A stretch of 64,000 bases of DNA from a phage: the sequence record NC_135728.1. The stretch is one strand, 5' to 3'. The notes under the pieces were generated by a model, which searched no databases, was not told the origin of the DNA, and saw nothing but the letters and a program-made list of their open reading frames with translations. Below, piece after piece: positions 22,392 through 60,829 of the stretch (position 1 is its first letter; each line of letters opens with the position of its first letter). Made by a program: the position numbers and the translations under genes.

Positions 22392-23399
22392 TTAATCACC
22401 TTTCAGAGTTGCTTTAACAACCAGCTCTGGACGGGTGTTAACTGCCAGCATAGAAGTTTCAGATTCAATCTTCTCTTCACGCAGGTATGCAGAGTGTTTA
22501 TACCACATATACAGTTCCTGTGCTGGGGTATTTGCTTCGTTAACATCATCTGCCGGAGCAAAGTGCAGCTGGAACATCTGATCAATACCCATCGGCAGAA
22601 TGCGAGCTTCTTTCTTAGGAATATTGCCAGAGATATCTTCGATAAAGGTGATACCTTTATGTTCGAACACACGATAAACGCTGTCCTGACCGCCAGCACC
22701 CAGACGACGACGCAGAGGTTCCTGAGCAGAGCCGTAGTAGGTGTATGCCAGCTCTACCAGCGGGTGGTGAGTGACTGCACTGAAGAACTCAGGAGAGCAC
22801 AGAGCCACGATACGGTAGCCAGCAGCGTTGTCACCAGCTTGCAGGGCGATATGCAGACGAGCGTCTTCCAGAACTTCCATCGGGTCCTGATCTGCTTTTG
22901 CAGGATCGATCTCAACAGATTTCTGAGACACACCCCACAGAGTGTAGTAATCATACTGGCAGGTAGCGTCACCAGGTGCATAGGATTTACCCAGAATAGC
23001 CTGGAACAGCGCTTTCTCACGCAGTGCTTCATGGGAAACACGGATACGGCGAACAACTCGGGTTACTACGTCCTGAACAGTTTTCGGAGCATCAGGGGTG
23101 AAGTAACGACGGAAGTTCTGAACATCTGCGGCGGTGATGCCTTTGTCCAGAGGGAAGAACGGGATGTTCAGGTTTTTAACCTGAGCACGTTCATTACCAA
23201 CGTAGTTACGCTCACCACCACGACGGCGTGCCGGAATGTCGGTTACAACTTCATCAACACGCTCGATCTGAGCAATCGTTGAGGTGCCGAGACGGGTTTC
23301 GAACAGATCCATACCAGTAATCAGTCGGAATTGGCGCGGAACAAGGTCCAGAGTAGCACCTAAATCAACAATGCCAAATTCATCTTTACGAGTAATCAT
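22392..23399 (-). CDS. major capsid protein (335 aa)
   Basis: Size and position after scaffold and small head protein; followed by a strong terminator, typical of highly expressed capsid genes. Confidence 0.75.
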   Translation of the reverse strand: MITRKDEFGIVDLGATLDLVPRQFRLITGMDLFETRLGTSTIAQIERVDEVVTDIPARRRGGERNYVGNERAQVKNLNIPFFPLDKGITAADVQNFRRYFTPDAPKTVQDVVTRVVRRIRVSHEALREKALFQAILGKSYAPGDATCQYDYYTLWGVSQKSVEIDPAKADQDPMEVLEDARLHIALQAGDNAAGYRIVALCSPEFFSAVTHHPLVELAYTYYGSAQEPLRRRLGAGGQDSVYRVFEHKGITFIEDISGNIPKKEARILPMGIDQMFQLHFAPADDVNEANTPAQELYMWYKHSAYLREEKIESETSMLAVNTRPELVVKATLKGD

Positions 23400-23857: not shown

Positions 23858-24835
23858 TTATTTGGCAGATTCTGCACGTGCACGAGCAAGTGCTTTTGCA
23901 ACGTTTTCAGCAAGAATTTCTTCTGCGGATTTTGCAATATCATCCACAACAGGTTCGCCATCATTACCATGTTCAGTGGTGGCAAACTCTTCTTTGGTTT
24001 TATGCACCTCTGCTTCCAGCTCTTTAATTTTGGCTTGAGCTTTCTCCAGCATAGCTACGATAGGTTCGTTAGCTTTTTCCAGCATGAAGTCAACCAGGGT
24101 TGCATGATCTTCTTCACCAACAAAGCTTAAAGCTTGAGCCTTGGTCAGCATTTTAGCTTTTTCAACTTCAACCTGGGCCTTAATAATTTCTTCAGCTTTA
24201 CTCTGGGTCGCTTTCAGCTCTTCTACTTGCTTCAGCAGGTCCAGGTACTCTTTGGTTTTGGTTACGTCCACCGGATTCTCCTCGGTATTTGCGGATTTTT
24301 CAATATCATCCACCTTGGTAGTTTTATCCACCTCAGCAGGTTCCTGTACCGCCTTAATCAGGTTCCCTTCTTTATCGAAGAGATCAGCGGTTACTTGTTC
24401 AAAAATCTGTTGTGTTTTTAACAGACTGTATTGATCTACCACACTAAGCTGCTTGCCTTCTTTTGCAGCTTTATGAATGGTCACGTTATCACAACGCTCT
24501 TCCAGCCATGCAATACAAGACTCTGCGTCAGCTTGCGCCCATTCCCAATCAGGATGCTCTTTAGCCCAAGCCTCTTCTTCAATCTCAAAGCCAAGCATGT
24601 GTGCAAGTGCTTTAGCATCATCATACCACATATCGAAGAAACGACGCAGGTATTCTTCAAAACTAAGCTCCACAGTAACTTGACGAAGTGCCTTAACAAT
24701 ATCGTCTGTTAACTGCTCAGGCTTAAGATCACTCTTCATCAAAAGAGATACAGGTCTGTTGTTAGCGCTATAGCCTTGCGCCTTGTGGCACAGGGCAATC
24801 CCCTTCTCTTTAATAGTAATCGTTTTTTCAGACAT
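23858..24835 (-). CDS. head scaffolding protein (325 aa), putative
   Basis: Highly charged Glu/Lys/Ala-rich helical sequence; position between portal/protease and capsid genes. Confidence 0.5.
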   Translation of the reverse strand: MSEKTITIKEKGIALCHKAQGYSANNRPVSLLMKSDLKPEQLTDDIVKALRQVTVELSFEEYLRRFFDMWYDDAKALAHMLGFEIEEEAWAKEHPDWEWAQADAESCIAWLEERCDNVTIHKAAKEGKQLSVVDQYSLLKTQQIFEQVTADLFDKEGNLIKAVQEPAEVDKTTKVDDIEKSANTEENPVDVTKTKEYLDLLKQVEELKATQSKAEEIIKAQVEVEKAKMLTKAQALSFVGEEDHATLVDFMLEKANEPIVAMLEKAQAKIKELEAEVHKTKEEFATTEHGNDGEPVVDDIAKSAEEILAENVAKALARARAESAK

Positions 24836-25269
24836 TATTCATTGCCCTCTTCTACAACACTGATCCCGAAGTTTACGTTGGTAATTTCACCAGTTTCTTC
24901 ATCAACATTACCTGTTGCCTGAATGCTTAGGCCACCAACAATGCCAGCCTTCTTAGCTTCCCATAATTCAGGATTATTGTATTTAACTTTAGCAACCCAA
25001 GAGCCAGCCTTGATGACCTGCTCAGTGCCAATCACTACAACATCAAACTCTTCTTGAATCCACGTCTTTTCAATGGTGAAAGCATCTGTAGAGGTCAAGT
25101 GAAAAAGGTTTTCAGAAACTAGTCCTGCGGCGTATGCTGCGTCCCAGTTATCTTTAGCCTTTTTGATGGTGTCTTTACTCATCCACTCACCGTGAGCATC
25201 TTTAGTGTCAGGCTCGTAGATGATTTCGTAGGAAATCATTTCTTCCTGTGGCATCTTATTCCCCATGTG
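24835..25269 (-). CDS. head morphogenesis protein, possible prohead protease (start uncertain)
   Basis: ORF track gives 24835-25410 but that overlaps the portal 3' end; internal Met at about 25269 proposed. Confidence 0.35.
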   Translation of the reverse strand, partial: HMGNKMPQEEMISYEIIYEPDTKDAHGEWMSKDTIKKAKDNWDAAYAAGLVSENLFHLTSTDAFTIEKTWIQEEFDVVVIGTEQVIKAGSWVAKVKYNNPELWEAKKAGIVGGLSIQATGNVDEETGEITNVNFGISVVEEGNE

Positions 25270-25321
25270 GATTATTTTATCACGCCAAAGGAGGTTTTGC
25301 AACCCCCTGTGTTGATAATTT

Positions 25322-26878
25322 TTAATTTTCCATGTTGGATATGGAATTATCTCTGGTTGATGACATCTTAGAAGTGCCGTTACCCGTGGATCCTGCAGCC
25401 ATTCCATCACCAGCTCTACTGATGTCCTGGCCCAAGAGCTTCATCAGCTCTTCCTGATCCATGTCCTCGTCAAATCTTTCATCAAACCCACCTACTTCAA
25501 GAATCTTATTAATTACTGCAGGAGTTTTTGGCAAGTAACCTACAGCACCGATCCTCTGGACAAACTTGGAGAAGCTCTCCATGTCCACCTCTTCAATCAG
25601 ACCAGGTTTCAGTTTAGGCATATCATCATCTTCAAGGATGATACCATTCAATGCCAAAAGCTGTGGAATAAGATCTTTATTGAAGGCTTCAGTGATAATA
25701 TCTATATCACGCTGAACAAAATGACCATGGATAGACTGTTTTGACTCAGACAGAGAGAAGGATCCAACGTTATCGTTACCGAGGTTAATAAAGCCAGCAC
25801 CGAAACGGTCAAGAATCGCCTTCTTACGGGCATCAATCAAATCTTTAGTGGAATACTGCTTACCCATACCGTCAACCCCCTTCAGGGTCATGGAGTAAAG
25901 CTCTTTACCAGACTTATCTCTATCAGACGGAAGTATAAAGAAACTTTGCTCACCACTATGGGCGTTTGCTGCGTCAAGCATAAGATCTGCAACCATTCTC
26001 CCTTCCATTGAATTCGGGTCAATGCTGGCCTTGTTCAAAATATTGGAAGGAATTTTCAGCTCAAGTACACCACCAAGGTCTTTGGAACAGCCAACAACCT
26101 CAAGGTTTTCAATCAGAACTTTCTCACGGAAAGATCTGTAGCAACCTATCATAGGTGACACACCTGCAGGGTTAGATTCTGTTCCTGACAGGGTCATGAG
26201 CATAAGTTTTTTAGCAGGGATGAAAATTTCAGGCTCATTAAAGCCTTTTGAAGGCATTGCAGCAAGAGGTCCAGCCCAGCGTGCATTCTGAGTGTTTAGA
26301 AATGCATTAGGTGACTGATAAATACCTGTCAGTGTTCTACTGTTCTTGTCAAAGACAAACGGCTCTGATCTAGACAGACTGGCCTGAGGTCGGAATGCAA
26401 TTTTATCAATAAGAAGCATCCCGGCATATTTACCTTCTTTCTCTCTGCGGTATACTTTCTCAAACAGTGAAAAACCATACTCGTTAAAGGTAGCTGCGCT
26501 TCTTGCAATATCCCGAAGGGTTTGTTGGTTTGCCAAATTACGCAAAGAATACTCTATAAGCTCTGCAGCTTTCTTAGAGTCTTCACTTTTAACATTATAA
26601 AGGATCTTAAAATCATTAAATGCTTTCGTGATGAAAACGTATTTTGTATCTAAGGCAGTAGCAACTGTGGAATCACATTTCATAGTCTCCACTGTGGCAA
26701 TCAGCTGAGGCCAACGCAATTCCTCAACCATCATAGATTGCGATTCTGCCATAATTTGGGAAAGTGCGCCAGAACCGATCTCACTCATACGAACATTATG
26801 AGTTGGTGCGCCTGCGTTCCCAGATTTATTCACAGTTTTGGCTGTGGCGTTGTGTTTCCTGCGGTTCTTTTTGGACAC
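25322..26878 (-). CDS. portal protein (518 aa)
   Basis: Size and position directly downstream of the large terminase. Confidence 0.65.
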   Translation of the reverse strand: MSKKNRRKHNATAKTVNKSGNAGAPTHNVRMSEIGSGALSQIMAESQSMMVEELRWPQLIATVETMKCDSTVATALDTKYVFITKAFNDFKILYNVKSEDSKKAAELIEYSLRNLANQQTLRDIARSAATFNEYGFSLFEKVYRREKEGKYAGMLLIDKIAFRPQASLSRSEPFVFDKNSRTLTGIYQSPNAFLNTQNARWAGPLAAMPSKGFNEPEIFIPAKKLMLMTLSGTESNPAGVSPMIGCYRSFREKVLIENLEVVGCSKDLGGVLELKIPSNILNKASIDPNSMEGRMVADLMLDAANAHSGEQSFFILPSDRDKSGKELYSMTLKGVDGMGKQYSTKDLIDARKKAILDRFGAGFINLGNDNVGSFSLSESKQSIHGHFVQRDIDIITEAFNKDLIPQLLALNGIILEDDDMPKLKPGLIEEVDMESFSKFVQRIGAVGYLPKTPAVINKILEVGGFDERFDEDMDQEELMKLLGQDISRAGDGMAAGSTGNGTSKMSSTRDNSISNMEN

Positions 26879-26980: not shown

Positions 26981-28102
26981 TTAGATAAAACGCTTGAACA
27001 TAGAAGGTGATGAGATTGATGGAATCACACAAGGAAGTGCTACCTCCTCTTTCTCCAGGAAATTAATTGCAGAAGCTACACAGTCAGCCCAGTCGTCTTT
27101 TCTGTTAAATGTTGATCTTTCCCCGTTGAATTTTTCAAGTTCGGTCAGAAATGCTTCCAGAGTATCAGGATGGAAACTGGATTTTACAATCCTCACCATC
27201 CCTTGTTGGGCAAGATTGGCAAAAGGTGAGAACCTTGTCAGTTTAGACTTGTTGGAAGGCATTGGGTCTTCTTCAACCCTGAACCCTTCTGCGAGCAAGG
27301 ATCTGGATGAGGTTAAGAACTCACTCTTACCTGCCTGACCAGGGTCCACAGAGAATACGATTATGCAATCATCACCATCAAACTGCGCCTGTTTCCTGAT
27401 GATCACATCTCGTTCACCAGCCTTTTTACAGAACTTGCCTTCCAGACCTGTGGAATACCTCCCGTCATCCACGTTTTCAGGACAATAATCCCCTGACAGG
27501 TAATAAAAGCCGTCGCTATCTTTACTTACCTTAATACTGGCAGTAAAGTCAGGAAATTTATTGCCAGAAGTTCTCTCGGTTCCTGCCTTATCCCATGCCC
27601 TGCAAGATACTGATCCAAGGGGTACTCTATCGGCATCACGAAGGAAAGATCTTTGAAAATAGTTTGCACCCTCAGGCTTTGCAAACCAGTTACCATGGAG
27701 AAGCTGAGCTTTTTCCAGCTCTGGTAGACCTTCGAGGAAAGCAAGGTATTCTGGGTTGTCTCTCAAACAGACAGGATTATCAAATATTGTTGCGCCTATG
27801 AACGAGAATGACAACGGTCTTGGCTTGATCTCTACACCCAGTCCGTTAACCGTGGTGTATTTCTCTATCAACTCTTCCTTAGAGTCTCCCCAAATAAATT
27901 CACCGTCGCGTCGGATAAAATATCTTTTCTTACCACATTTCTCCGGATCTGGATACCCTTCATCGTCCAACCACCATCTAACCAGTTTGGCAAGCATGTG
28001 TTCTGAATCAGGGTTACAGCTGATAACCATCCTTGATGGATACTTTGACTGAGATCGCAGACGAGACATCAGATAGTCTATCTGCTCCCATTCAAATTGT
28101 GT
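26981..28102 (-). CDS. terminase large subunit, exon 2 (nuclease half); 5' boundary approximate
   Basis: Frame continues upstream of the annotated Met (TQFEWEQIDYL-MSRLRS...); contains MVISCNPD motif; different frame from exon 1, reconciled by removing the intron. Confidence 0.75.
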   Translation of the reverse strand, partial: TQFEWEQIDYLMSRLRSQSKYPSRMVISCNPDSEHMLAKLVRWWLDDEGYPDPEKCGKKRYFIRRDGEFIWGDSKEELIEKYTTVNGLGVEIKPRPLSFSFIGATIFDNPVCLRDNPEYLAFLEGLPELEKAQLLHGNWFAKPEGANYFQRSFLRDADRVPLGSVSCRAWDKAGTERTSGNKFPDFTASIKVSKDSDGFYYLSGDYCPENVDDGRYSTGLEGKFCKKAGERDVIIRKQAQFDGDDCIIVFSVDPGQAGKSEFLTSSRSLLAEGFRVEEDPMPSNKSKLTRFSPFANLAQQGMVRIVKSSFHPDTLEAFLTELEKFNGERSTFNRKDDWADCVASAINFLEKEEVALPCVIPSISSPSMFKRFI

Positions 28103-29950: not shown

Positions 29951-30027
29951 TGGTCTCCACGGAGTGATTCGAACACTCGACCTCCTGATCCCAAATCAGG
30001 CGCTCTACCAAGCTGAGCTACGCGGAG
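29951..30027 (-). tRNA. tRNA-Pro (anticodon UGG)
   Basis: Manual fold: acceptor CTCCGCG/CGTGGAG, D-arm GCTCAGCTTGGTAGAGC, anticodon loop TTTGGGA, T-loop TTCGAAT, encoded CCA. Confidence 0.8.
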
Positions 30028-30038
30028 TATTTATAATT

Positions 30039-30113
30039 TGGTGGCCCTGGGTGGAATTGAACCACCATCTGGCGATTATGAGTCGCTTGCTTGAACCTTC
30101 CAGCTACAGGGCC
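30039..30113 (-). tRNA. tRNA-Met (anticodon CAU; could alternatively be a lysidine-modified Ile2-type)
   Basis: Manual fold: acceptor GGCCCTG/CAGGGCC, anticodon loop CTCATAA, T-arm GGTGGTTCAATTCCACC, encoded CCA. Confidence 0.75.
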
Positions 30114-30114
30114 A

Positions 30115-30190
30115 TGGTGCTGATGGCAGGACTTGAACCTGCAACCTATTGATTACAAATCAATTGCACTGCCAATTGTGCTACATCAGC
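30115..30190 (-). tRNA. tRNA-Thr (anticodon UGU)
   Basis: Manual fold: acceptor GCTGATG/CATCAGC, anticodon stem ATTGA/TCAAT with loop TTTGTAA, T-arm GCAGGTTCAAGTCCTGC, encoded CCA. Confidence 0.85.
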
Positions 30191-30196
30191 AAAAAG

Positions 30197-30294
30197 GTGC
30201 TAGGCGGTGGAATCGAACCACCTATGTATTCAACGACTACCTCGTCTATTTTCAGGATTAAAAATCCTCGCCCTTGCCAAAGGGCTTACCTAGC
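30197..30294 (-). tRNA. atypical tRNA-like gene (about 98 nt; canonical acceptor and T-arm, aberrant anticodon/variable region, CCA not fully encoded)
   Basis: Acceptor GCTAGGT/GCCTAGC and T-arm GGTGG-TTCGATT-CCACC are canonical; only a 4-bp AGGA/TCCT stem with loop TTTTTAA and a ~30-nt region before the T-arm; positions 8-9 are AA. Confidence 0.4.
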
Positions 30295-30392
30295 TCAGTA
30301 TGTTGACCATGTTGCTAGTCGGCGATGACGACTGTAACATTTGATAATCCGGTTCTGCTTCCGGCTTTCGCTTAATTACAAGGTCAACAATG

Positions 30393-30483
30393 TGGCGGAG
30401 AGTAATGGAATCGAACCATCATCGAGTCATCCTCAATGGGACGGTTTTCAAGACCGCTTGAGCACCATTGCTCCCTACCCTCC
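30393..30483 (-). tRNA. tRNA-Ser (anticodon UGA), class II with long variable arm
   Basis: Manual fold: acceptor GGAGGGT/ACTCTCC, anticodon stem GCGGT/ACCGT with loop CTTGAAA, long variable arm, T-loop TTCGATT, encoded CCA. Confidence 0.75.
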
Positions 30484-30598
30484 TTTATAAATTATACTGA
30501 TAATGACACTGATTTTCGAGCAGTTAGTGACTAGTATAAACGACGATAAATATCAATGCCATTATCTGTATTATTTACGCATCTAAAAAATATAAATT

Positions 30599-30685
30599 TG
30601 GTGGGGAGTGGTGGAGTCGAACCACCCGAGTCGCAATGACAATAGATTTACAGTCTACACCGCTACCTCTACGGGATAACTCCCC
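30599..30685 (-). tRNA. tRNA-Tyr (anticodon GUA), class II
   Basis: Manual fold: acceptor GGGGAGT/ACTCCCC, anticodon stem GTAGA/TCTAT with loop CTGTAAA, T-arm GGTGGTTCGACTCCACC, encoded CCA. Confidence 0.8.
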
Positions 30686-30689
30686 AATT

Positions 30690-30764
30690 TGGCACCCCGT
30701 ACTGGACTCGAACCAGTGTCAACGGCTTAGAAGGCCGCTGCTTTATCCACTAAGCTAACAGGGC
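30690..30764 (-). tRNA. tRNA-Arg (anticodon UCU)
   Basis: Manual fold: D-arm GCTTAGTGGATAAAGC, anticodon stem GCGGC/GCCGT with loop CTTCTAA, T-arm ACTGGTTCGAGTCCAGT, encoded CCA. Confidence 0.8.
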
Positions 30765-53389: not shown

Positions 53390-53668
53390 ATGAGCTGTGA
53401 AAAATCTTTTTTCTTTATTATTTACGGTAAAGATAACTGCCCACATTGTGTAAGAGCAAAAGAATTTGCAGTCAGTAAAGGTCTGCCTTTTGTATATAAG
53501 ACACTTGGAGAGGGATACACAAAAGAAGAGCTTATTGAGAAGTGTAGTCCAATCGTCCCAAGAACGTTACCGCAGATCTTCTTAGAAAGCGATCTTGATA
53601 GTGTCCATGTAGGTGGTGCCGACGATTTCATCTCTTTTGTTAAGAATGATTTTGGAGAGAAAAAGTGA
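53390..53668 (+). CDS. glutaredoxin/NrdH-like redoxin
   Basis: Redox-active CPHC motif near the N-terminus; placed between nrdB and nrdD. Confidence 0.75.
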   Translation: MSCEKSFFFIIYGKDNCPHCVRAKEFAVSKGLPFVYKTLGEGYTKEELIEKCSPIVPRTLPQIFLESDLDSVHVGGADDFISFVKNDFGEKK

Positions 53669-55788
53669 AAGTTGTAAAACGGGACGGTAGAGAAGAGGTC
53701 TATAACGGAATTAAGGTGATCAAGGCGGCAGAGTCCGCCTTACTTGAGTCTGGACATACTGAAGAAGAAGCTTACCGGATCGCCTGCGCGGTTAATGAAG
53801 TTGTTGCTAACAATCTACCAACCGACCAGTGCACGATCTCTGTAAAAAATATCCATATCCTTGTTGAAGACGCTCTTATGGATATGGGTTTAAAATGTGC
53901 AGCCAGAGAATACATCCAGTATAGGCAGACAAGAGATAATAACAGAGAGGCAGGTGGAAAACTGCTTGCAGATATTAGTGGCTTCTTGGATCGCACTTGT
54001 GATGAATTTACAAAAGAAAACGCAAATAAGCCTACCAACCATGTACACACTCATCGTGACCTGCTTGCAGGCATCCTTAGCAAACACCTTGCATCAACAC
54101 AGATCCTGCCAGACCGTGTCTCCGAAGAGCACAATAAAGGCTTCATCCATGTGCATGATCTTGATTATTTGATCAGTCCGTTAACAAACTGTTGTTTGGT
54201 AAATTATCCAGATATGCTGGAAAACGGATTCAACATTGGTAACGCCCATGTCAGTAAGCCGAAGTCAATAGGGGTTGCAACAACAATCCTTAGCCAAATC
54301 TCTAGTGCGGTAGCTAGTGCTCAATATGGCGGTCAGACTATGAGCCATATTGATCATTATCTGGCACAGTATGCTGAAGCAACCTATGAGAAGAACCTTA
54401 AATTTTGCCAGGAACATTGGTTGCCAGATGCTGAGACTGTTGCAATGCAAATGACAGATAAAGACGTATTTGACAGCATGCAGACTTTGCTCTATCAAAT
54501 CAATACGTTAACTTCTGTCAACGGGCAAACTCCATTCATTACATTAAGTTTGGGTCTGGACACCTCAGTATTTGGTAGAATGATTACCAAAAACTACTTG
54601 AAAGTCCACAAAATGGGTCTTGGTGAAGAACGTATCACACCTGTGTTCCCTAAAGTGCTGTTCTTCCTAGAAGAGGGTGTCAACATGAACCCTGGAGATC
54701 CTAACTATGATTTGAAACGATTAGCTCTGGAATGCTCTGCAGAGCGGATTTATCCTGACTTTGTTTCTGTTCCACTAAATCGTAAAGTGACAGGCTCGAC
54801 AGATGGCAAAGTAACGAGCATGGGTTGCCGGAGTTTTCTTAGCAAATACAATGACTTGGAAACAGGTGAGGAGAAATACCTCGGCAGATTCAATTTGGGT
54901 GTTGTTAGTCTTAACCTACCAATGATTGCGGCAAAAGCTAAGACGGAAGGTGTTGATTTCTTTGCCGTTCTTGACGAATACCTGGATCTTGCATACGAGG
55001 CTCACCTTGTAAGGGTTAACCGTCTAAAAGGAACAAAGGCAGGGCAGAACCCTATCATGTGGTGTGAAGGTGCTCTTGCTCGCCTGGATCCTGAAGAGAG
55101 TATTGATAAACTCTTCTATGACGGGTACGCTTCCATCAGTATTGGGTATATTGGTGTGTATGAAACCTGTCAGATTTTGGGCAGGGAGGGTGACAAGGCT
55201 TTAGCTCTTGGAATACTTCAGCACATGAGAGATGCTTGCGAGCGATACAAGAAGGAAAGTAGACTAGCGTTTAGCTTGTACGGCACCCCTTCTGAGAGTC
55301 TATGCTATAAAGCTGCAACCTGTCTGGATCGTGAATATCCTGAAGTGTTGAAGCACGAGCATGAATATCTCACCAACAGTTTCCATCAGCCAGTGTGGAT
55401 CAATAGCTCTCCTTTTGATAAGTGGGAATATGAGGAAGGTTTTGCTATGATCTCCTCTGGTGGCAACATCGGGTACGTAGAGACACCAAATCTGAAAAAC
55501 AACTTAGATGCTTTAGAGGCTCTTGTTGACTTCGGGTATAAACACATTATGTATTTTGGTATTAACCAACCTGTGGATAAATGTCTCAAGTGTGGTTTCT
55601 CTGGTGAGTTCAGTGCAACAGCTAAAGGCTTTGTATGCCCAGAGTGTGGAAACCATGAAGAGGGAACGATCAGTGTGATCAGACGTGTATCCGGGTACCT
55701 GTCTAGTCCAAACTCCCGTCCTTACAATAAAGGTAAGCAAGCGGAAGTTATCGAGCGGGTTAAGCACTATGGAAGTTGTAGTTGCTGA
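53665..55788 (+). CDS. nrdD: anaerobic ribonucleotide reductase (class III)
   Basis: N-terminal ATP-cone, C-terminal glycyl-radical motif RRVSGYL, zinc site CPECG. Confidence 0.9.
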   Translation: MKVVKRDGREEVYNGIKVIKAAESALLESGHTEEEAYRIACAVNEVVANNLPTDQCTISVKNIHILVEDALMDMGLKCAAREYIQYRQTRDNNREAGGKLLADISGFLDRTCDEFTKENANKPTNHVHTHRDLLAGILSKHLASTQILPDRVSEEHNKGFIHVHDLDYLISPLTNCCLVNYPDMLENGFNIGNAHVSKPKSIGVATTILSQISSAVASAQYGGQTMSHIDHYLAQYAEATYEKNLKFCQEHWLPDAETVAMQMTDKDVFDSMQTLLYQINTLTSVNGQTPFITLSLGLDTSVFGRMITKNYLKVHKMGLGEERITPVFPKVLFFLEEGVNMNPGDPNYDLKRLALECSAERIYPDFVSVPLNRKVTGSTDGKVTSMGCRSFLSKYNDLETGEEKYLGRFNLGVVSLNLPMIAAKAKTEGVDFFAVLDEYLDLAYEAHLVRVNRLKGTKAGQNPIMWCEGALARLDPEESIDKLFYDGYASISIGYIGVYETCQILGREGDKALALGILQHMRDACERYKKESRLAFSLYGTPSESLCYKAATCLDREYPEVLKHEHEYLTNSFHQPVWINSSPFDKWEYEEGFAMISSGGNIGYVETPNLKNNLDALEALVDFGYKHIMYFGINQPVDKCLKCGFSGEFSATAKGFVCPECGNHEEGTISVIRRVSGYLSSPNSRPYNKGKQAEVIERVKHYGSCSC

Positions 55789-56996: not shown

Positions 56997-57343
56997 CACA
57001 AGAACGTATCGATTTGGCTAATAAGTTTGTAGATCTCATTTTGCCACGGTTAGTTACTCAACATGCAGACGCTATTTCTACTAATCTTGATGGCTTACGC
57101 CTAATGCTGAATCGCACAGATGACCCTCGTATTCGGGCTGATTTAGAAGCCTCTGCCAACAAACTGGAAAAGTTCTTGCAAGTAGACACGCAAGAAGCCT
57201 TACACAAGATTATGGTGGAAGGTTTCTCTAAAGAATTTACCATTAAAGAGCTTAAGGAGCTGATCCACCAAGAAGAGATGAATATCCGAGTTCAGGCTGT
57301 TGCAAGCAGCATGGAAGCGGCTATTGAAAAACTGTTGCAGTAA
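56993..57343 (+). CDS. hypothetical protein (116 aa)
   Basis: ORF track (GTG start overlapping upstream stop). Confidence 0.45.
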   Translation: MTQERIDLANKFVDLILPRLVTQHADAISTNLDGLRLMLNRTDDPRIRADLEASANKLEKFLQVDTQEALHKIMVEGFSKEFTIKELKELIHQEEMNIRVQAVASSMEAAIEKLLQ

Positions 57344-57381
57344 AAGTACTTGACACATCTCAATCTGAAAGGAGTCCCAAC

Positions 57382-58170
57382 ATGGGTCGAGCTAAAGAAA
57401 CAAAACGCATGCGTGATGAAGCTAGAGAGGCTCGCAAATCTGATCGCCTGCGTAAGGCTGCTGAGAAATTTGCTGACGAACGAGAGCACACAGCTCCAGC
57501 TCTCCGACCAATGAATAAAAAGCAGCAAAAGTATCTTGATTATCTAGGGTCACGTAAGATTATTATTGTAAACGGTGTGTTTGGATCCGGTAAGACATTC
57601 ATGGCATCTGCATATGCAGGTGATCTTCTGCGTAAGAACGAGATTGATAAGATCATTGTTGCACGTCCTTACGTTCAGACAGGAAAGACTTCAGGATTTA
57701 AACCTGGAAATGCAATGCAGAAACTGTGGCCCTATCTTAGAAGCATGATGGACACGATTTGTCGTCGTGTTGGCAAAGGTGCTTTTGCCGCAATGCTGGG
57801 AGACGGTCAGAACAGCCGTATCGAGATTTGTGAGGTTGAAAGCATTCGTGGTCGTAGTTTCGATGAGCGATGCTTTGTCCTGATTGACGAGGCACAGCAA
57901 ACTAACCCTGAAGAAATGTTGTCAATTATCACAAGGATCTCTGATCAGGCCACTCTTGTAATTATGGGAGATAATAGTCAACGTGACATCCCTGGTAAAT
58001 CTGGCCTTGCATGGGTGACAGATTTCTTTACTCGTCATCCAGATCCTGAGGTTGGAATGATCAGCTTTGATAGTCCAGACGATGTCGTTCGTTCCGGGTT
58101 GGGTCGTCAGATTGCACTCAATCTTATTGAGGATCGTGCAAATCATATTTGGACCCCTGTTTCCGAGTAA
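57382..58170 (+). CDS. phoH: PhoH-like ATPase
   Basis: Walker A GVFGSGKTF and Walker B-like FVLIDEAQ in PhoH arrangement. Confidence 0.8.
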   Translation: MGRAKETKRMRDEAREARKSDRLRKAAEKFADEREHTAPALRPMNKKQQKYLDYLGSRKIIIVNGVFGSGKTFMASAYAGDLLRKNEIDKIIVARPYVQTGKTSGFKPGNAMQKLWPYLRSMMDTICRRVGKGAFAAMLGDGQNSRIEICEVESIRGRSFDERCFVLIDEAQQTNPEEMLSIITRISDQATLVIMGDNSQRDIPGKSGLAWVTDFFTRHPDPEVGMISFDSPDDVVRSGLGRQIALNLIEDRANHIWTPVSE

Positions 58171-58214
58171 CACAGAAGGGTGGTTATTCCACCCTTAGAT
58201 ATCTAAAACAGTTG

Positions 58215-58243
58215 TTGACAAATAGGTAAGCTTTAGATATTAT
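58215..58243 (+). promoter_or_regulatory. sigma70-like promoter
   Basis: TTGACA (58215-58220), 17-bp spacer, TATTAT (58238-58243); RBS AGGAGAAGGAG before ATG 58269. Confidence 0.6.
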
Positions 58244-58268
58244 TATCGGACAAGGAGAAGGAGATAGT

Positions 58269-58580
58269 ATGGCTACAGTACAAGAGAAACTGAATAAAAT
58301 ATACTGCCTGTTTGTCTATAACGGCGAGACAATTCTGGCATATAAAGGATCCAAGAATGTATGGATCAAGGACAGTGGTGGTAATATAATCAACTTAGCG
58401 TTGCTACGTGAGCGCCGACACAGATTCTTTATCGAGTCTCGGATTATTGAAAGCAGCACCTGCTACAGAACAGGCGATAAAGTAATTGTTGACAATGATA
58501 CGTGGTATGTGGTAGACTGGCAATCATTGAGCTGTGATGCTTCTGACAATCGTAAGTATTCTATAGTGATTGCTAAATAA
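58269..58580 (+). CDS. hypothetical protein (103 aa)
   Basis: ORF track with promoter and RBS. Confidence 0.5.
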   Translation: MATVQEKLNKIYCLFVYNGETILAYKGSKNVWIKDSGGNIINLALLRERRHRFFIESRIIESSTCYRTGDKVIVDNDTWYVVDWQSLSCDASDNRKYSIVIAK

Positions 58581-58639
58581 AGGTAAATGTGAATCAGGTT
58601 TAATAAATAGCTTTCAACTTCCAATATTAAGGATTTCTC

Positions 58640-59689
58640 ATGAATTTAACACCTCGCAGCACCATGGTACACGGCATGAAAGAAAAACAGAACGGTTTCG
58701 AACCTATGAGTAATAAAATGTTTGGTATGCCAGGTGGTATTATGGAAACATACAGCTACCCAACACCAGTTGTTGACCACGTTCTTTATATCGACGATTT
58801 GGAAGACTTACAAGATCATATGTCTCGTCTACAGACGATCCGTATGGCTCAGCCGGAAGAAAGCATTCGGGTGATCATCAATAGCCCTGGGGGTTGCGTG
58901 CACATTGCAATGGCTTATCTGCAGGCATTCCGTGAGTCTCAGGCAAGCGTTGTTGCACATGCTGAAGGGATGTGCTGCTCTGCGGGAACAATCTTATGGC
59001 TGGGTTGCAAAGAGCGCACTGTTGCTCCGGACACAGAGTTTATGTTCCACTACTACCAAGGTGGCACCTATGGTAACGGTGTGAACATGAATACCCAGAT
59101 CAACTACTGGAAGAAACGTTTTGAACGCCTGATCGAAAAATACTACGGTGGGGTGTTAACAGAAGATGAGATCGCATCCATCACAGCTGGCGGTGAAGTG
59201 TGGTTAGATGGAGAAGAGCTGGCATCTAGAACTGGTGCTATCATTCTGGACGATGAAAACATTCAGCGCATTCAGAATGGACAGAAACCGAAAAAGCTTT
59301 TGGCAAAAAGTGATGAAGAAGGTGTGCTAGGCGAAGCAGGCCTGCCAGAGATTCACCAATGCACATCTCTGGACGAGCTGGTTCATGCTGTTGAGTCTGC
59401 AAAAGCAAATGGTATGAAAGATGATGTTCACACTGTGTTCCTGAATCTGCAGATGGAAAGTGGCGAGACAGTCAGGATCGCCCTGGGTGAAATTACTTCA
59501 GAAGATCTGCAGCGATTCTCTGTCGTCGAACTTCAGGATATTCTGTCTCAATTGAAGACTACTCTGAACGGCGGTGAAGAGGTTAAGGTGAAAGACAAGA
59601 CCCGCAAGCGTCTGATGGACAATATCATTAAAACAGCAAAAGAGCTCAATGAAAAAATCCTGGGTTCAGGAATTGTCGAAGAAGCTTAA
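58640..59689 (+). CDS. ClpP-like serine peptidase with acidic C-terminal extension
   Basis: ClpP-type motifs INSPGG and GMCCSAGT (Ser nucleophile context). Confidence 0.55.
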   Translation: MNLTPRSTMVHGMKEKQNGFEPMSNKMFGMPGGIMETYSYPTPVVDHVLYIDDLEDLQDHMSRLQTIRMAQPEESIRVIINSPGGCVHIAMAYLQAFRESQASVVAHAEGMCCSAGTILWLGCKERTVAPDTEFMFHYYQGGTYGNGVNMNTQINYWKKRFERLIEKYYGGVLTEDEIASITAGGEVWLDGEELASRTGAIILDDENIQRIQNGQKPKKLLAKSDEEGVLGEAGLPEIHQCTSLDELVHAVESAKANGMKDDVHTVFLNLQMESGETVRIALGEITSEDLQRFSVVELQDILSQLKTTLNGGEEVKVKDKTRKRLMDNIIKTAKELNEKILGSGIVEEA

Positions 59690-59700
59690 ACATTAATTCT

Positions 59701-59727
59701 AAAGCCCTCTTCGGAGGGCTTTTATGA
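59701..59727 (+). terminator. rho-independent terminator
   Basis: aaagccctcttcggagggcttt hairpin with UUCG loop followed by T-run. Confidence 0.6.
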
Positions 59728-59740
59728 TCTGGAGATTTGC

Positions 59741-60274
59741 ATGACTTGTGCTAGAAAACCTGATGAACAACGTAACGCATACGATGAGTATGTGACACCG
59801 GAGTGGTGTGCAGAAGGGCTGTATGACCTTATTCCGTTCCCAGAGGACTGGACCTACTTAGAGCCTTGCAGGAATAGTGCCTCAGGTGTGTTCTACTCCC
59901 GTATGCCGTTAGGATCTGCATGGGGAGAAATCCAAGAAGGTGTTGACTATCTGAATACAGAATACAACCATGTTGACTGTATTATCACCAACCCACCATA
60001 CAGTCTGGCCCGTGAGTTTGTAGACAAGGCGTTGAAAGATGCTGACGTAGTTATTATGCTTTTGCGTCTTAATTTTCTGGAAAGCAAAGCCAGATTTGAA
60101 TGGTGGCTTGATAATGCACCTACCACTGTGATCACAATATCTAAGCGTCCATCATTTCAATCAAATGGTAGAACTGACGGGCAAGCATATGCATATTTTG
60201 TGTGGGATAAGAAAAACCGTTTAGACTTGCCGCCATTTATGTGGTTGGCACCCCCAGAGGTAGACCTGAAATGA
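59741..60274 (+). CDS. DNA methyltransferase (amino-methyltransferase, NPPY motif)
   Basis: IITNPPYS catalytic motif; second methyltransferase in the window. Confidence 0.55.
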   Translation: MTCARKPDEQRNAYDEYVTPEWCAEGLYDLIPFPEDWTYLEPCRNSASGVFYSRMPLGSAWGEIQEGVDYLNTEYNHVDCIITNPPYSLAREFVDKALKDADVVIMLLRLNFLESKARFEWWLDNAPTTVITISKRPSFQSNGRTDGQAYAYFVWDKKNRLDLPPFMWLAPPEVDLK

Positions 60275-60555
60275 AAATGAGTGCTAAGGACAAATTACAC
60301 CAACTGGCGCTAAAACGTCCTGTAACGCTTCCTGACGAGCTTAACTCTATTTATGATGCGATTGTAGGGGAGATACAAAATAAAGCGTTAGCAGGCTTTC
60401 TGGGATGCGGATTTTCGATAAATCTACCCTCGCATCTCTCAGATTACTTCCCGCATATTGTTGGGGATTTGAGGGCAGGAGGTCTGCAGGTAGATGTTGT
60501 TGGCATCTCTCCAGAGAAAAATAACACGGTTGCCTACTTGACAGTAACTTGGTAG
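60271..60555 (+). CDS. hypothetical protein (start adjusted to ATGA overlap with upstream stop)
   Basis: ORF track 60241-60555; internal Met at 60271 overlaps the methyltransferase stop. Confidence 0.4.
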   Translation: MKMSAKDKLHQLALKRPVTLPDELNSIYDAIVGEIQNKALAGFLGCGFSINLPSHLSDYFPHIVGDLRAGGLQVDVVGISPEKNNTVAYLTVTW

Positions 60556-60566
60556 TTGTGTATTGT
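60538..60566 (+). promoter_or_regulatory. sigma70-like promoter
   Basis: TTGACA (60538-60543), 17-bp spacer, TATTGT. Confidence 0.45.
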
Positions 60567-60829
60567 TGTTATCAACAAGGGGGTCATTTATGTACAAGTC
60601 ATTTTCAATTTACTCAAGACAGGCGAAACATTACACAGAGATTCTAATCACTCAGAAAAAATCTGTAGAAGGTGAGTGGGAATATCATCATAAAATGTTG
60701 CGTCCAGACTGGGTTTTTGATAGGCTTATTGCTATGATCCCTCTTGGAGAAGTATACCCTCTGACAGGTCATAGGGATGCTTGGGATTTAATTGATTACA
60801 TAGATTCATTTAAGGAGCCTAGTGTATGA
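60563..60829 (+). CDS. hypothetical protein (88 aa)
   Basis: ORF track. Confidence 0.4.
   Translation: MLLSTRGSFMYKSFSIYSRQAKHYTEILITQKKSVEGEWEYHHKMLRPDWVFDRLIAMIPLGEVYPLTGHRDAWDLIDYIDSFKEPSV

Follow-up and report, generated by a model that had tools for sequence, protein, structure and literature searches.

An S14-type ClpP-like peptidase encoded apart from the head genes of an rV5-like phage, with a probable auxiliary role

The ClpP-like gene and its fold

The gene considered here encodes a ClpP-like serine peptidase and lies in a 64,000-nucleotide stretch of phage DNA (sequence record NC_135728.1; the whole stretch is referred to here as the window), which comes from a Vequintavirus (rV5-like phage). 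A preliminary description, drawn from the letters alone, had reported an open reading frame (ORF) with the ClpP-type motifs INSPGG and GMCCSAGT. Both were recovered at 58640-59689 on the plus strand, where the ORF encodes 349 amino acids (aa) with the motifs at residues 80-85 and 110-117, and an AAGGA ribosome-binding site lies 7 nt 5' of its ATG. The gene and the parts of its product, with model confidence given as the predicted local distance difference test (pLDDT), are:

58640..59689, plus strand: ClpP-like serine peptidase gene, orthologue of rV5 ORF122 / rv5_gp117, 349 aa (ORF list, phrog_5410)
58640..58768, plus strand: N-terminal 43 residues, predicted disordered (pLDDT <50 at residues 1-43), with an FG-x-PG / YSYP motif
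58769..59284, plus strand: ClpP-fold protease domain, about residues 44-215, with Ser114, His137 and Glu186 (pLDDT ~85-94, Foldseek)
59285..59359, plus strand: variable linker, about residues 216-240, largely disordered (pLDDT <50 at residues 222-240)
59360..59686, plus strand: lineage-restricted C-terminal domain, about residues 241-342 plus tail (genus-specific helix, beta-hairpin, helix-loop-helix)

The gene is already known and annotated in rV5-type Escherichia coli phages. At the DNA level more than 100 rV5-like coliphages match the region with 96-98% identity, Mangalyan best of all, and the protein is 99.7% identical to the "ATP-dependent Clp protease proteolytic subunit" of Mangalyan and ~96% identical to the rV5-like phage proteins under the tblastn matches. 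The rV5 orthologue (YP_002003619, rv5_gp117, ORF 122) is listed as "ClpP (ATP-dependent) protease subunit" with 349 aa and a pI of 5.0. Across rV5 and the other Vequintavirinae it is the same gene (96-99.7% protein identity, equal length of 349 aa), with PhoH, a 103-aa ORF, the ClpP-like gene and a methyltransferase in the same order, and rV5 ORF122 shows no material difference from the protein in the window. The match to phrog_5410, an 'ATP-dependent protease' of Vequintavirinae type, joined residues 24-344 to profile positions 4-321 of 323 (E 1.1e-154, 515 bits) and so included the C-terminal domain. The 2013 rV5 paper has a protease entry in its gene listing and names no protease in its main text, and on functional work with phage-encoded ClpP only annotation-level statements were found in the literature.

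Classification with profile hidden Markov models, which the preliminary description had proposed as a way to decide between families S14 and S49, returned S14. The Pfam model CLP_protease (PF00574) scored 48.3 bits against a cut-off of 20.2, the match covering only profile positions 32-143 of 182. Peptidase_S49 (PF01343) gave no Pfam match at E up to 1, SDH- and NfeD-type Pfam models scored below their own cut-offs, and the NCBIfam model SppA_dom (TIGR00706) reached 14.2 bits against a cut-off of 155. The clpP equivalog TIGR00493 also fell short, at 33.9 bits against 308.6, as did the remaining ClpP models of NCBIfam, all far under their cut-offs. The model NF045542, 'head maturation protease, ClpP-related', scored 61.2 against a cut-off of 120, or about half.

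An AlphaFold2 model built from 25 homologues was confident at residues 44-215 (pLDDT ~85-94), with disorder at residues 1-43 and 222-240 and a separate C-terminal domain beyond. The ClpP-fold domain ends near residue 200-215. When the model was compared with the PDB by Foldseek, the top 50 matches were all ClpP, with 160-173 aligned columns and target TM scores of 0.63-0.72, and a handle helix was present at residues 150-169. The protein is S14-type in fold and motifs and is not an orthologue of cellular ClpP. With bacterial ClpP (MEROPS S14; E. coli, PDB 1TYF and 1YG6) it has in common the fold, a Ser nucleophile and a His base located in equivalent motifs, the SPGG motif of the oxyanion hole and the handle helix. 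However, it is only ~20% identical to it, stays far below the clpP equivalog cut-off, has Glu or Gln for the triad Asp and a polar ClpX/ClpA docking pocket, and carries an unrelated, disordered N-terminal region in place of the axial loops and an extra C-terminal extension of 134-150 aa. The S49 peptidases (SppA, the lambda gpC type, Felix O1 gp56) have a distantly related ClpP/crotonase-like fold and a Ser-Lys dyad, whereas the phage protein has an invariant His at the position of the ClpP base and no invariant Lys. In Felix O1, a relative in its structural genes, the S49 head protease is encoded in the phage's own head module (PMC3185647).

Active site, docking surface and flanking segments

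The active-site residues S114 and H137 were invariant in 25 aligned relatives and align to Ser97 and His122 of E. coli ClpP. The third triad position was taken from a HMMER pairwise alignment to Pseudomonas aeruginosa ClpP, which places E186 at the catalytic Asp, and not from the global MAFFT alignment, where the C-terminal third of E. coli ClpP was misplaced. The protein in the window has Glu and not Asp at this position, and among 39 homologues the residue was Gln in 35 and Glu in 4, while Asp is kept in the homologues from ICP1, ValKK3, K7_rec27, Kassivere and Nahantvirus. In E. coli the Asp is flanked by E169 and R170; matched by motif, the phage family has an invariant G184 and G185 there. 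If active, the family would work through the Ser-His pair and a relaxed third residue.

In E. coli ClpP the pocket that docks ClpA and ClpX is built from L23, L48, F49, A52, Y60, Y62, F82, I90, M92, F112, L114 and L189 (bioRxiv 10.1101/820209). At the seven alignable positions the phage family showed the replacements Y60R, Y62I/V, F82E, I90H, M92E, F112T and L114A/S, and the phage residues (R77, I/V79, E99, H107, E109, T127 and A/S129) were invariant or nearly so in 40 sequences. Five of the seven (R77, E99, H107, E109, T127) are invariant polar or charged residues, and the hydrophobic pocket for the IGF/IGL loops that characterizes an ATP-dependent Clp subunit was not found at the alignable positions. 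These polar residues make canonical docking of an IGF/IGL loop unlikely and, as far as can be judged from the alignment, leave the "ATP-dependent" label unsupported.

The docking surface bears directly on the possibility that the protein is a true ATP-dependent Clp proteolytic subunit, whose tetradecamers would be driven by host ClpX or ClpA and would redirect these unfoldases to substrates chosen by the phage. The ClpP fold, the retained Ser-His pair and the handle helix in the model are consistent with such a subunit, and the protein is widely annotated under that name in databases. However, six of the seven alignable docking-pocket residues are polar or charged in the protein of the window, most of them invariantly, the N-terminal stretch expected to make the axial loops is unlike ClpP and predicted to be disordered, the score against the clpP equivalog is about a ninth of its cut-off, and the residues flanking the Asp are not conserved. 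We consider a true Clp subunit quite unlikely. Because neither the docking pocket nor the triad Asp is conserved, the name "ATP-dependent Clp protease proteolytic subunit" is not justified for this gene and should be corrected.

The FG-x-PG / YSYP motif of the N-terminal segment is kept only in the Vequintavirus/Seunavirus group, where F28 and G29 are nearly invariant, and FG-x-PG is absent from the homologues in ICP1, Pakpunavirus, Otagovirus, Barbavirus and PBES02. That FG-x-PG might mimic the IGF/IGL docking tripeptide of ClpX/ClpA was considered and rejected, the motif being group-restricted and its segment disordered.

The acidic C-terminal extension of about 150 aa noted in the preliminary description measures 134-150 aa, with 28 acidic and 19 basic residues and a pI of 4.9 over residues 200-349. 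With a pI of 4.7 the protease domain is no less acidic, and the extension does not stand out by its acidity. The linker that precedes the C-terminal domain differs in length and sequence among relatives. The conserved core of the domain spans ~80 aa (residues ~264-342) and consists of a beta-hairpin followed by a helix-loop-helix, with F293, E297 and R322 invariant; the helix at residues 244-256 is an insertion restricted to close relatives. Modelled alone, the domain reached a mean pLDDT of 75.8 and gave no confident fold match; a weak HeH-like hint was noted for it. When 1.84 billion representative proteins were searched exhaustively with HMMER, it was recovered in only five, all of the same family, and in other lineages the shared protease core ends in a short or an unrelated tail. 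On this sequence comparison the C-terminal domain is a lineage-restricted appendage, which most likely recruits a substrate or partner.

The head module and the role of the ClpP-like peptidase

The preliminary description had placed the gene on the strand opposite to the head-assembly genes and roughly 33 kb from them, and had doubted that its product is the prohead protease. The head genes are indeed on the minus strand, at a distance of 32-36 kb, and the doubt is supported by a separate XkdF-type protease candidate in the canonical head position:

22392-23399, minus strand: capsid protein, E-type major capsid protein
23858..24835, minus strand: acidic 325-aa scaffold-like protein (pI 4.8), in the position of the ICP1 scaffold
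24835..25410, minus strand: XkdF-type (Peptidase_S78_2) protease candidate (PF14550, 64.6 bits against a cut-off of 24)
25322-26878, minus strand: Mu-type portal

The XkdF-type candidate sits between the portal and the scaffold-like gene, the canonical position of a head protease, and the head module is complete without the ClpP-like gene: it comprises a fragment of the large terminase (TerL), the portal, the XkdF-type protein, the 325-aa protein, a head-decoration protein and the capsid protein. The order is the same as in the ICP1 capsid cluster gp122-126, in which the scaffold function was established by experiment (PMC10945586) and gp125 has been predicted to be the protease (PMC7567579). 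The ClpP-like gene, by comparison, is found outside the head module, in the opposite transcription unit and among nrd, phoH and methyltransferase genes. The XkdF-type gene is more likely than the ClpP-like gene to encode the prohead protease, judging by profile match and position.

In the rV5 virion, analysed by multidimensional protein identification technology (MudPIT), 19 proteins are tabulated; ORF122, the ClpP-like protein, is absent from the table, as is the XkdF-like ORF63, and the scaffold-like ORF62 is represented by two weak peptides only. A peptide of the virion capsid protein, KDEFGIVDLGATLDLVPR, begins at residue 5, which indicates that this protein is not N-terminally trimmed; the head protease, whichever it is, would then probably cleave the 325-aa scaffold-like protein.

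Two annotation issues were encountered in the head module. The XkdF-type gene is named 'DNA methyltransferase' in RefSeq rV5 (rv5_gp063), in phrog_1530 and in several further records, and gp136 of Pakpunavirus YS35 bears a matching label, 'putative methyltransferase'; an annotation error seems to have been propagated here, masking a likely prohead protease. The large terminase ORF (26981-28069, minus strand) is a C-terminal fragment only, covering profile positions 286-621 of phrog_979, and the rV5 terminase is annotated as three joined pieces with an HNH endonuclease inside, so that the gene is probably interrupted by an intron or intein in the phage of the window too.

The pairing of a head-module protease with a distant ClpP-like gene was found in ICP1, Otagovirus, Pakpunavirus, Barbavirus, the siphovirus P26059A and T4-like vibriophages, and each lineage checked that has a ClpP-like gene also has a separate head-module protease or candidate. 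With the XkdF-like protein of the window as query, tblastn recovered homologues in ICP1 ("capsid protease"), Otagovirus ("prohead protease"), phAPEC8-like phages and UPEC06 ("prohead protease"), and Pakpunavirus gp136 is XkdF-like by local blastp (E 6e-7). In Barbavirus a separate 469-aa peptidase lies between the portal and capsid genes (PMC6715854), and the CLP_protease gene is beside phoH and dam. XkdF, ClpP and phoH are all present in siphovirus P26059A, whose authors class clpP and phoH as auxiliary metabolic genes (PMC5964084). In the T4-like phage ValKK3 the ClpP-like homologue lies between frd and uvsX, and in T4-like phages, KVP40 included, gp21 is the core prohead protease (PMC2993671). 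RNA sequencing of ICP1 showed that the capsid genes gp122-126, the predicted protease gp125 included, peak at 16 min, and that a nucleotide-metabolism subset, gp176-gp211, peaks at 12 min (PMC7567579); ICP1 ORF211, the ClpP-like homologue, is the last gene of that subset.

Short standalone ClpP-like proteins of phages (phrog_1827, with ICP1 ORF211, KVP40/ValKK3 ORF255, and the Pakpunavirus and Otagovirus 'protease subunit') have a homologous core with 29-35% identity to the protein in the window, which matches phrog_1827 at 139 bits. They likewise occur among nucleotide-metabolism or replication genes, often beside phoH, in genomes with another head protease. They differ in their own C-terminal tails, which are short or unrelated, and in that the third triad residue is still Asp in most of them.

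On balance, the comparisons favour a role outside morphogenesis for the ClpP-like peptidase. We read the protein as an auxiliary S14 serine peptidase of the nucleotide-metabolism and replication block, active in the cytoplasm and not in the prohead, and assign this reading a probability of roughly 0.6. The alternative most directly addressed by the head module is that the ClpP-like protein is itself a capsid-maturation protease, sole or accessory, encoded at a distance, with its C-terminal domain targeting capsid or scaffold and the 325-aa protein degraded inside the prohead. A C-terminal extension on a flexible linker is the layout expected of a targeting domain, and the E-type capsid protein is of the kind found in lambda, where the protease gpC adopts a ClpP-like fold. 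With the ClpP-related head-maturation proteases (NF045542; phrog_1684, 94, 2976 and 133) the protein shares a ClpP-fold serine protease core, at 53-83 bits. However, it scores about half the NF045542 cut-off, its gene lies outside the head module and in the opposite transcription unit, and all lineages examined have a dedicated protease candidate at the canonical place in the head module, T4-like phages that carry a homologue being already equipped with gp21. Furthermore, the ICP1 block with the homologue peaks earlier than the capsid genes, the C-terminal domain is not kept across the lineages that share the protease core, and the ClpP-like protein went undetected in rV5 virions. A maturation role for it therefore appears unlikely.

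Several points nevertheless weigh against an auxiliary role. ClpP-fold proteases are an established class of prohead protease, and the protein matches families named 'head maturation protease' (phrog_1684 at 83 bits, phrog_94, phrog_2976 and phrog_133) and, weakly, NF045542. The XkdF-type proteins are themselves just putative proteases, without a solved relative by sequence, so that the head-module candidate is likewise unproven. Absence from the virion by mass spectrometry is weak evidence: prohead proteases often leave or digest themselves, the XkdF-like ORF63 was equally undetected, and the result is compatible with a transient presence of the ClpP-like protein in procapsids. The 12-min timing in ICP1 is given for a gene range and not for gp211 individually. 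The docking comparison is a profile alignment at ~20% identity, indicative and not conclusive, in which L23, L48, F49, A52 and L189 could not be aligned. The prevalence of Gln at the Asp position (35 of 39) would leave room for reduced or altered catalysis, and no experiment on the protein or any orthologue was found in the literature.

As an auxiliary enzyme, the ClpP-like peptidase would act in the cytoplasm of the infected cell, where, probably as a ring of the ClpP kind, it would cleave unfolded proteins or peptides. It would probably bypass the canonical docking of host ClpX or ClpA, because an invariant polar surface (R77, E99, H107, E109, T127) replaces the hydrophobic pocket, and the C-terminal domain on its disordered linker would most likely bring in the substrate or partner. 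Plausible classes of substrate are host or phage regulatory proteins, or bulk protein turned over to supply amino acids; the targeting of host proteins, which the preliminary description had raised, is plausible. If found, such substrates would show how large lytic phages use a private compartmentalised peptidase in the middle phase of infection.

A set of 60 weaker IMG/VR matches was considered as head-module proteases. This assignment proved wrong for both loci tested, and the set was not used as a 'head-type' control. The two loci (L033:9866-10420 and L056:9833-10408, IMG/VR contigs) encode ClpP-fold proteins of ~190 aa with phrog_94, 'head maturation protease', as best PHROG match, and have phosphoribosyltransferase, QueE-like radical-SAM and exonuclease genes as neighbours and no head genes. 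These neighbours indicate that PHROG names assigned by sequence are unreliable as to role. Among environmental phages, ClpP-fold peptidases encoded away from head modules seem to be widespread, and their roles are not readable from family names.

Transcription unit, PhoH linkage and further observations

Around the ClpP-like gene the following features were found, all on the same strand:

57382..58170, plus strand: PhoH-like P-loop ATPase gene (Pfam PhoH, 160.9 bits)
58215..58243, plus strand: sigma70-type promoter-like site, TTGACA-17-TATTAT (11/12 consensus match)
58269..58580, plus strand: 103-aa ORF directly 5' of the ClpP-like gene (phrog_5456, E 7e-39)
59741..60274, plus strand: N6-adenine DNA methyltransferase-like gene (phrog_799, E 8e-67)

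The promoter-like site is the counterpart of the annotated rV5 promoter P121 and, by its sequence and position, likely drives the 103-aa ORF and the ClpP-like gene. Expression would probably fall in the middle phase, from a sigma70-type promoter and together with phoH and the nrd genes. On the scale of the window, the GC skew turns from negative to positive near 34 kb, coinciding with the switch from structural genes on the minus strand to metabolism and replication genes on the plus strand; this change marks two divergent transcription units, as described for rV5. Among 19 related loci, tblastn placed a homologue of the 103-aa ORF 100-900 bp 5' of the ClpP-like gene in 13. Pakpunavirus, Kassivere and Otagovirus share another small ORF upstream of the gene (mutual identity 36-45%).

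Of the 19 closest IMG/VR loci, 18 have the PhoH gene upstream in the same orientation, as do ICP1, Otagovirus, Barbavirus, GAP31 and PBES02; in Otagovirus phiPsa300 it overlaps the ClpP-like gene. A methyltransferase lies directly downstream in GAP31, PBES02 and Barbavirus as well. The order PhoH, ClpP-like, adenine methyltransferase thus recurs in Vequintavirinae genera (the loci of GAP31 and PBES02, L010 and L093) and in the 80-kb Rheinheimera Barbavirus (L090). No adjacency to PhoH was seen at the ClpP-like loci of ValKK3, Klebsiella K7_rec27 and Nahantvirus, and Pakpunavirus YS35, which has the ClpP-like gene, gave no PhoH in the whole genome in a search where the positive control from the window scored 418 bits.

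This linkage raises the possibility that the PhoH-like ATPase and the ClpP-like peptidase are coupled, either with PhoH docking on the polar surface as a non-canonical nucleotide-dependent partner or with both in a shared pathway of RNA or ribosome turnover. The recurrence of the linkage in ICP1, Otagovirus, Barbavirus, Seunavirus and Certrevirus, with the overlap in Otagovirus, is in line with such coupling, and the invariance of the residues that replace the docking pocket suggests a conserved interaction surface. An obligate partnership is weakened by Pakpunavirus YS35, which is without any PhoH, and ValKK3, K7_rec27 and Nahantvirus also speak against coupling. Moreover, many of the linked lineages share rV5/Felix O1-like gene content, and the synteny may therefore be inherited and not selected. 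PhoH is not known to be an AAA+ unfoldase. Coupling of the two proteins is thus very unlikely in our estimate, and a full phage-encoded module, in which PhoH and the peptidase with its polar docking surface and private C-terminal domain would act as partners or in shared RNA and protein turnover, is a shade more improbable still. If true, such a module would give a first concrete function to viral PhoH, a very widespread phage gene, and the recurring linkage in itself offers a modest experimental handle on it.

The ClpP-like gene is not a new object, having long been annotated in a phage group that serves for typing and biocontrol of E. coli O157. Beyond the annotation the analysis adds a few modest points: the docking pocket is lost, the triad is relaxed, the C-terminal domain is confined to the family, and the order of PhoH, ClpP-like and methyltransferase genes recurs.

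Three further observations concern the window and its relatives. A tRNA cluster at 29951-30764 (minus strand) contains seven predicted genes, for Pro, Met, Thr, Ser, Tyr and Arg and an odd 99-nt call at 30196-30294 with a 4-base anticodon; rV5 is annotated with six tRNAs, and the odd call could represent a pseudo-tRNA or a tRNA with an intron. About 19 unannotated 'Campylobacter phage' records (MG0656xx) are ~96% identical to the window at 57300-60600 and are probably mislabelled or contaminant genomes of rV5-like coliphages. Upstream of the ClpP-like gene, at 53665-55788, lies a class III anaerobic ribonucleotide reductase; this gene (nrdD) is annotated as two joined pieces in AlexBoehm, which suggests an intron or other interruption there.

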